From: a virus
Lineage: Duplodnaviria > Heunggongvirae > Uroviricota > Caudoviricetes
IMG/VR virus record: IMGVR_UViG_2675903609_000009
Strand: one strand, 5' to 3'
DNA length: 15,832 nucleotides
This document shows positions 7,755 to 8,912 of this stretch, piece by piece. A model generated the notes under the pieces. That model did not search any database. It worked only from the letters and a program-made list of their open reading frames with translations, and had not been told where the DNA came from. The first letter of the stretch is position 1, and the number at the start of each line of letters is the position of its first letter. The position numbers and the translations under genes were made by a program.

Positions 7755-8084
7755 TTAATCGTCGTCTTCCGGCAATGCCAGAATCTTGATCGCGTTCGAA
7801 TCCACCACGCCACCGCCTAAATATTTTTGCGTGAAAATTTTGATGAATCCTGGTTCTGTCAGGTTGTCCGGTCTGGTGCGAACACCTGTTTCGTGATCAA
7901 CAATGTAGTAACCGCGTTTGAAGTCACCCAGGGCAATAACGTTATCAGGCATAAACTCCAGATATTCGACCGGAAGGCCCAGCAACGTATCAGGATCACC
8001 CGCCTGTAAACGGTCGCGCCAGATATAATCACCGTTCGCGTTCTTCACCTTCTGAAGTTTTGCCGCCGTCGTGGAGTTAACCAC
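7755..8084 (-). CDS. Major capsid protein, C-terminal portion (separated from the N-terminal portion by an in-frame TGA at 8085..8087)
   Basis: LLGLPVEYLEFMPDNVIALGDFKRGYYIVD...GGGVVDSNAIKIL matches the conserved C-terminal region of HK97-fold capsid proteins; same reading frame as 8085..8912. Confidence 0.8.
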   Translation of the reverse strand: MVNSTTAAKLQKVKNANGDYIWRDRLQAGDPDTLLGLPVEYLEFMPDNVIALGDFKRGYYIVDHETGVRTRPDNLTEPGFIKIFTQKYLGGGVVDSNAIKILALPEDDD

Positions 8085-8912
8085 TCAGACCGCGTTTTTG
8101 CGGTATTTTTTACGTAATGCAAATTTCAGGTCGATCAGCGGGTCCGCAGATGTCCACGCCAGAGATTCGGAAGGTTTAATTACCTGCAACGTACCAAAAT
8201 CACGCTCTTTGTCGTTCTTCTCTGCACGGGGTACGGATAAAAAACCTTTTGCTTTTTTGTCACCGTCGCCCACAACCAGATCGCTTTCTTCGGTTTCCGT
8301 GAAGGTGTCGCCAATCTCACCCGTCAGCCATGAAAGGATGTCCACATCGGAAAAATCCACGATTTCCTGTGTGGTGCGCGGGTACGCATAGACCGGATAC
8401 AGCTTAATGCTCACCTCGTTAATCTGCGGGGTGCTGGTCTGTTCGCGTGCCTTACCCTCTTCACCGTGGTTAACGGTCGCACCGCCAGCGGAAACAAGCT
8501 GCTTAAACTCGTTGCTGCTGATTTTCTTCACGGTACAGATGCGACGCATGGTGGATTCATCCGCCAGCATTCGCATGATTTCGGTGTTCAGTTCAGGGAT
8601 AACGGTATAACCACCATCAGCGGGAACGCCTGTACTTAATGCGCGGGTTTCACCGGTCAGAATGTAGTTGCGTAGTTCTGCGGGGTCAGTGGTCTGGCTG
8701 CTTTTACCTGGCTTGCTGCGCTCTTCGTCTGCAATGGCTTCAAGGCGGGAAATGTCTTTATCGAGGGATTCAGCTTTAGCGCGTAATTCGTCAAATTTTG
8801 TGCCCTCAGCATCGTTAAGACTGCGGTTTTCTTTTTCAGCGTTCTCCAGCATGTCGCGCATCTGATTTTTAATGGCGGTTTTCTGCTGGCGTAATTCGAT
8901 TATTCTCTGCAT
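8085..8912 (-). CDS. Major capsid protein (HK97 fold), N-terminal portion with coiled-coil delta/scaffold domain; ends at a premature in-frame TGA
   Basis: N-terminal coiled-coil (ELRQQKTAIKNQMRDMLENAEK...) followed by capsid-like body; start at ATG 8912 with AGGA about 9 nt upstream (ORF-track start 8960 is GTG without a ribosome-binding site). Joined parts total about 385 aa, the usual size. Confidence 0.8.
   Translation of the reverse strand: MQRIIELRQQKTAIKNQMRDMLENAEKENRSLNDAEGTKFDELRAKAESLDKDISRLEAIADEERSKPGKSSQTTDPAELRNYILTGETRALSTGVPADGGYTVIPELNTEIMRMLADESTMRRICTVKKISSNEFKQLVSAGGATVNHGEEGKAREQTSTPQINEVSIKLYPVYAYPRTTQEIVDFSDVDILSWLTGEIGDTFTETEESDLVVGDGDKKAKGFLSVPRAEKNDKERDFGTLQVIKPSESLAWTSADPLIDLKFALRKKYRKNAV

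Follow-up and report, generated by a model that had tools for sequence, protein, structure and literature searches.

Sequence comparisons point to a nonsense-mutated major capsid gene in a capsid-forming phage-inducible chromosomal island of Shigella flexneri

The window, that is the whole stretch of 15,832 nucleotides analysed here, extends from phoQ to the start of an integrase gene and, judged by its gene content, is a capsid-forming phage-inducible chromosomal island (cf-PICI) of the EcCIEDL933 type in S. flexneri, integrated between roxA and phoQ. Members of this group build their own T=4 capsids and borrow only the tails of helper phages (bioRxiv 10.1101/2022.09.08.507074; 10.1101/2025.02.11.637232). 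Between phoQ and the integrase gene all genes lie on the minus strand and encode an AlpA-type regulator, small ORFs, a D5/primase and the capsid protein, followed by the protease, portal, head closure protein, head-tail connector, HNH protein, TerS and TerL. The PICI backbone is present, with the integrase (409 amino acids), AlpA (62 amino acids) and the primase (582 amino acids) all full length relative to the E. coli island in tblastn comparisons that used the E. coli RM6927 island proteins as queries, and the same families have Pfam matches in sister loci too. The island also has all the genes of a head and packaging module of its own, ordered as in the O157:H7 island, with the capsid gene interrupted and, in sister copies, TerS truncated at its 5' end. 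In sister loci the whole element occupies approximately 14-15 kb between roxA and phoQ, and among the called genes of these loci no tail or lysis families were found. In E. coli genomes the same island is located either at roxA-phoQ or in tqsA. Coordinates of the principal features are collected in Table 1. The terminator-like hairpin at 7724-7745, composed of GAAGGGGCTAAAAAGCCCCTTT and a T-rich tail, may set the ratio of capsid to protease expression.

Table 1. Positions of the main features in the window, with the interrupted capsid gene divided into its parts
Feature	Position	Strand	Basis and remarks
phoQ, flanking chromosomal gene	1..1461	+	Annotation of homologous loci; Pfam
Large terminase, 553 aa, full length	2553..4214	minus	tblastn, residues 1-553, 98.6%
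Portal, 403 aa, full length	5930..7141	minus	tblastn, residues 1-403, 98.3%
HK97-family prohead protease, 190 aa, full length	7143..7715	minus	tblastn, residues 1-190, 97.9%; annotation of homologues
Terminator-like hairpin	7724..7745	minus	Consensus scan; between capsid stop and protease start
Major capsid gene, HK97-type	8912..7755	minus	385 codons, 386 counting the terminal stop
Codons 1-275 of the capsid gene	8088..8912	minus	Translation; PF05065 positions 1-166 of 280, E 3.3e-29; 98% identity to 9gyi
In-frame TGA in place of Trp codon 276 (TGG)	8085..8087	minus	Alignment with E. coli and S. flexneri loci
Codons 277-385 and natural stop	7755..8084	minus	Now untranslated; PF05065 positions 169-278, E 9.7e-24
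Tyrosine integrase, 409 aa, intact	14603..15832	minus	ORF call; tblastn, residues 1-409, 95.4%

Upon translation, the minus-strand frame of the capsid gene, running from the ATG at 8912 to the TAA at 7757..7755, is interrupted by one internal stop, a TGA at 8087..8085, which occupies codon 276 in the context KKYRKNAV-(stop)-VVNSTTAAKLQ. ORF calling divides this frame into two pieces, an N-terminal one at 8085..8960, for which a longer GTG start option is given, and a C-terminal one of 109 amino acids at 7755..8084, whose GTG start lies immediately 3' of the TGA (TGAGTG). This C-terminal piece is annotated as a protein of its own in S. flexneri records, gene callers starting it at the same GTG. 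The sequence-only reading had described a single capsid protein of 385 amino acids split by the TGA, and its coordinates, frame, quoted peptide and total length were all reproduced by re-translation and by the ORF calls. It had further placed the conserved C-terminal capsid region beyond the stop. In the Pfam family PF05065 (Phage_capsid, 280 positions) the N fragment matches at 1-166 and the C fragment at 169-278, both past the curated cut-off. Since these ranges adjoin, the two ORFs represent contiguous halves of one domain rather than two genes. The repaired protein matches residues 1-385 of the EcCIEDL933 capsid protein (gene 1786, PDB 9gyi) with an E value of 1e-252 and 6 differences in 385 positions (98%), and together with the two Pfam matches this places it among HK97-fold capsid proteins.

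Codons 1-275 cover the delta/scaffold region (residues 1-92), the SxGxxAD maturation motif (residues 93-99), present here as STGVPAD from residue 93, the N-arm, the E-loop, the P-domain spine, the connector loop and the first part of the A-domain, and codons 277-385 cover the remaining A-domain and the C-terminal P-domain strands. In the published structural work the connector loop at residues 227-248 directly precedes the A-domain (bioRxiv 10.1101/2025.02.11.637232), and hence the break falls inside the A-domain, with the C-terminal P-domain strands lost as well.

The window is a gapped draft containing N-runs at 4541-4671, 5635-5706 and 9328-9450 (131, 72 and 123 bases, respectively), the first of which is directly preceded by a junk G-run, GGCGGGGGGGGGG. 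Because ORF calling read through the N-runs, the lengths it gives are misleading in the PerC region and for the TerS and head-closure genes. A draft of this quality would favour the explanation that the TGA is a sequencing or assembly error, the true base being G and the gene intact, as the sequence-only reading had allowed. However, the TGA is found in all seven of the other independent S. flexneri assemblies examined, in one (L003) by an exact match of a 36-mer containing the TGA, located on chromosome CP182556, and in six (L004-L009) by whole-gene alignment, and the complete chromosomes carrying it include CP182556, CP026765, CP026871 and CP026776. Moreover, at least 1000 contigs encode the exact truncated product of 275 amino acids. 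The product is spread over 1821 index blocks, contigs longer than 1 Mb being present in 11 of these, and wherever a source name is given it is S. flexneri. Because independent assemblies agree, the base at 8085 (A on the coding strand, T on the plus strand) can be trusted despite the gapped draft, and an assembly error at this base is excluded to the point of being scarcely credible. Wherever the window can be aligned with the S. flexneri locus L005, identity is 99.97-100%. The TGA is common to at least two S. flexneri sub-groups, one combining the A304T substitution with a split integrase and an IS1 within the island, and the other lacking them. Thus, by these alignments the TGA is genuine and lineage-wide, being present in every S. 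flexneri copy examined.

Comparison with E. coli reveals how this stop arose. Within a 91-nt stretch around it, TGA versus TGG is the sole difference from two aligned E. coli loci, and in the whole-gene alignment nucleotide 828 is A in the window and in S. flexneri L004-L009 and G in four E. coli loci (L001, L002, L010 and L011), all of which have TGG at codon 276. Among 5426 complete RefSeq E. coli genomes searched, a 71-mer with TGG was found at 99% or higher identity (exact) in 301 of 355 genomes, while none of the 349 genomes in which the segment occurs matched the corresponding 71-mer with TGA at 100%, and the 71-mer with TAG likewise had no 100% match in the 5426 genomes. The exact repaired (Trp276) S. 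flexneri sequence was not present among approximately 15 billion proteins, a result which is uninformative about timing. Because E. coli has TGG, the TGA and TAG 71-mers are absent and one base separates the two forms, the stop is, on sequence grounds, a single G-to-A transition converting W276 to an opal codon. The proposal of a single TGG to TGA change made by the sequence-only reading is thereby upheld, 9gyi also having Trp276, and the alignment with intact homologues which it had suggested returns Trp (TGG) at this codon in the four E. coli loci. The alternative that capsid proteins of this family end naturally at this point and are followed by a separate gene does not agree with the E. 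coli homologues, which are single proteins of 385 amino acids, annotated by NCBI as one 'phage major capsid protein'. The gene hence has the attributes of a nonsense pseudogene, as it differs by a single base from intact orthologues encoding one polypeptide and the difference is inherited within the lineage.

Clustering of the 109-amino-acid fragment together with homology searches retrieved other ORFs of 109-112 amino acids starting at the same position, originating from E. coli, Arsenophonus and metagenomes, in a search that favoured fragments of similar length. Recurrent truncation at W276 was considered as an explanation and rejected, as codon 276 is TGG in all four loci that were fetched (L012, L015, L017 and L018). 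In L012 (3001-3330) a TAG lies about 7 codons upstream of codon 276, in L015 (1416-1745) the break is also upstream and the N-terminal ORF is called with only 266 amino acids, and L017 and L018 have N-runs or other breaks nearby. Because all four have TGG with breaks elsewhere, the shared start is merely the first usable start codon. Decay of the capsid gene thus seems common among cf-PICI-like relatives from other hosts and metagenomes.

The island bears additional lesions. Measured against the E. coli copies, each of the six full-length S. flexneri loci has lost 72 bp between CCCCGCC repeats, which deprives TerS of its ribosome-binding site, its ATG and its first 7 codons, the next in-frame start being a GTG about 20 codons into the gene (L005 14288). 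This site (L005 ~14243-14290) corresponds to ~4535-4671 of the window, where it lies under an N-run and is unreadable. The same six loci carry a deletion of 504 bp relative to E. coli L002, L010 and L011, which takes out most of an SSB gene together with the 5' half of a PerC-family regulator gene and leaves a fusion ORF of 53 amino acids (window ~9215-9463, L005 9173-9334). The integrase, AlpA, primase and other packaging genes are full length in the window, the TerS site being unreadable, and owing to the intact integrase, AlpA and primase the island is not wholly dead and may still excise and replicate. Taken together with the nonsense change, these lesions read as a stepwise decay typical of Shigella.

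At 9172-9194 the window lacks 345 bp holding an ORF of 74 amino acids. In all seven other S. flexneri loci and in the O157:H7 island this segment is present and bordered on each side by a 23-bp terminator-like repeat, AAAAAGCCGGATTGCTCCGGCTG, of which the window retains one copy. Either the 345 bp were deleted between the repeats in this particular strain or the assembly collapsed at this point; the locus of E. coli RM10809-3 (L001) can be aligned through the junction and shows no insertion there. Four S. flexneri loci (L004, L006, L007 and L009) exhibit strain-specific extra damage to the same island, consisting of an IS1 transposase fragment between small ORFs and DUF4222, an integrase in two or three ORFs due to frameshifts, and a connector ORF that has become longer; in L004, moreover, the protease is fused to the portal, which is split. 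Downstream of the stop, A304T (gene nucleotide 910, codon 304) is found in L006, L007 and L009, and a synonymous change at Leu380 (window 7775, gene nucleotide 1138, codon 380) is unique to the window. Two post-stop changes among seven S. flexneri copies are too few for a dN/dS or relaxed-selection test.

The expected consequences for the capsid can be drawn from the EcCIEDL933 system. Following the single G-to-A change that turns Trp276 into an opal stop, translation would end after residue 275, and cleavage by the prohead protease at residue 93 would leave a stump of 183 residues, devoid of most of the A-domain and of the C-terminal P-domain strands. The mature EcCIEDL933 capsid protein has a mass of 32.6 kDa and begins at SxGxxAD (bioRxiv 10.1101/2025.02.11.637232), and by mass arithmetic residues 93-385 of the repaired protein amount to 32.5 kDa. 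A stop after residue 275 takes away 110 of these 293 mature residues, K290, D295, E319 and R345 among them, all four lying beyond the stop and being conserved in the S. flexneri sequence. Published genetics of the EcCIEDL933 capsid protein revealed that K290D, E319K and R345D abolish transfer and that D295K lowers it 100-fold. When the packaging genes of EcCIEDL933 were mutated singly, transfer was abolished in all cases but one, the exception being the hypothetical gene 1792, whose mutation severely reduced transfer, and replication was unaffected throughout (bioRxiv 10.1101/2022.09.08.507074). The stump would thus be unable to complete the HK97 fold or to form inter-capsomer salt bridges, and the island would make no T=4 capsids of its own and could not package itself. 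Since substitutions at the lost residues abolish or greatly lower transfer in EcCIEDL933, there are strong grounds to infer loss of capsid formation, and by analogy with that system the S. flexneri island is very probably unable to build its own capsids or to transfer. It is predicted on the same analogy that induction by a helper phage followed by transfer in island capsids with helper tails would fail at the capsid step. In addition, the capsid gene heads the operon, and its premature stop with 330 untranslated bases behind it could reduce the expression of the protease and portal via Rho-dependent polarity. The preferred reading, to which we assign a probability of about 90%, is that this gene is a nonsense pseudogene in a decaying cf-PICI, with W276* having ended capsid building.

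Against this reading, rescue of full-length synthesis at the stop has to be weighed. UGA is the leakiest of the stop codons. In E. coli K-12 reporters, its readthrough by Trp-tRNA in competition with RF2 is approximately 2-4%, and about 2% at 37 C (PMC10570021). Low-rate reading of this UGA by Trp-tRNA would insert the original residue and so recreate the authentic wild-type protein, giving a reduced but real capsid formation, and the C-terminal 109 codons have indeed acquired few changes within S. flexneri. However, no such stop exists in the E. coli homologues checked (neither TGA nor TAG in any of 349 genomes), so that this is not a conserved recoding site as would be expected for programmed readthrough or selenocysteine. 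Neither is there a sign of a stimulatory structure, as the fold of 76 nt around and after the stop has a minimum free energy of -19.7 kcal/mol, shuffled sequences averaging -17.3 (z = -0.75), and an Rfam scan of 7900-8200 with E values up to 10 returned no match. Furthermore, from the T=4 geometry about 235 subunits are estimated per capsid, and the truncated form would be present in roughly 50-fold excess while still having its scaffold domain, N-arm and E-loop. The packaging module is also broken elsewhere by the loss of the TerS start in sister copies, and the nonsynonymous A304T has already appeared downstream of the stop in three strains. A leaky stop yielding functional capsids is therefore quite improbable, and readthrough is unlikely to rescue function.

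A related proposal, which we regard as quite improbable, is that the opal codon is actively kept and not just tolerated, for which two versions can be put forward: a trickle of Trp insertion at UGA might keep rare transfer of the island alive, or the abundant 275-residue fragment, with its scaffold domain, N-arm and E-loop, might act as a dominant-negative decoy. If the decoy version were true, the assembly of incoming related satellites or phages would be hindered, providing a reason for S. flexneri to keep the gene. It is very improbable that re-initiation at the adjacent GTG generates a split capsid protein, in which pieces of 275 and 109 amino acids associate into a working subunit: although the GTG directly follows the stop and the 109-amino-acid ORF is annotated by gene callers, no Shine-Dalgarno-like sequence was seen by eye in the 12 nt before the GTG, homologues are single polypeptides with a solved chain of 385 residues, and the break lies within the A-domain of one Pfam domain. 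We know of no HK97-fold capsid protein made in two pieces. The chance of programmed recoding of the TGA as selenocysteine is close to nil, as nothing besides the codon itself speaks for it, homologues have Trp and neither Cys nor Sec at this position, and downstream there is no SECIS-like hairpin, nor an Rfam match.

The nonsense-pseudogene reading thus describes ordinary gene decay in an already characterised cf-PICI family, and nothing is newly opened biologically. For practical purposes, the S. flexneri copy should be left out when active capsid-forming satellites or gene-transfer vehicles are counted. Scans of gene content would score its packaging module as complete, which calls for caution in presence-based censuses of satellites. 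The natural W276* allele is also usable as a negative control in capsid studies.

Among known systems with which this locus can be compared are those with leaky decoding of UGA. The A1 protein of phage Q-beta is a product of UGA readthrough. This system and the E. coli reporters resemble the capsid gene in the codon concerned and in the near-cognate tRNA that can read it, which here would insert the ancestral residue, but unlike in those systems the stop is unconserved in homologues and no signal was found. Among capsid proteins, HK97 gp5 and the capsid protein of the Rhodobacter capsulatus gene transfer agent (6tb9/6tba) have the same HK97 fold and belong to PF05065, the latter aligning over residues 73-379 with an E value of ~1e-46 at low identity and having Phe in place of Trp276. 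The EcCIEDL933 capsid, T=4 where that of HK97 is T=7, is without the K169-N356 crosslink. From the gp5 sequence and the published correspondences, we take W276 to be equivalent to HK97 I275, at a hydrophobic strand position of the A-domain. Correspondences given in the structural study include K289/K290 and R294/D295 for HK97 and the island capsid protein, respectively (bioRxiv 10.1101/2025.02.11.637232).

As regards the host lineage, genome decay in Shigella proceeds by nonsense mutations, small deletions and IS elements. The island shares with Shigella pseudogene formation the single-base nonsense change and the small deletions between short repeats, as well as IS1 in some strains; it differs from usual Shigella pseudogenes in that it is a mobile element, not a host pathway, that has had a gene disabled, and is otherwise in no way unusual. 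The closest comparison is with EcCIEDL933, the prototype cf-PICI, whose capsid protein is that of 9gyi, judging by identity and by the published description. The S. flexneri protein has in common with it SxGxxAD at residue 93 and the residues D257, K290, D295, E319 and R345, and the packaging operon has the same order of capsid, protease, portal, head closure, connector, HNH, TerS and TerL. The two islands differ in codon 276, which is TGA here where 9gyi has W, in the integration site, roxA-phoQ as compared to tqsA for the O157:H7 copy, and in the extra TerS and SSB-PerC deletions carried by the sister S. flexneri copies.
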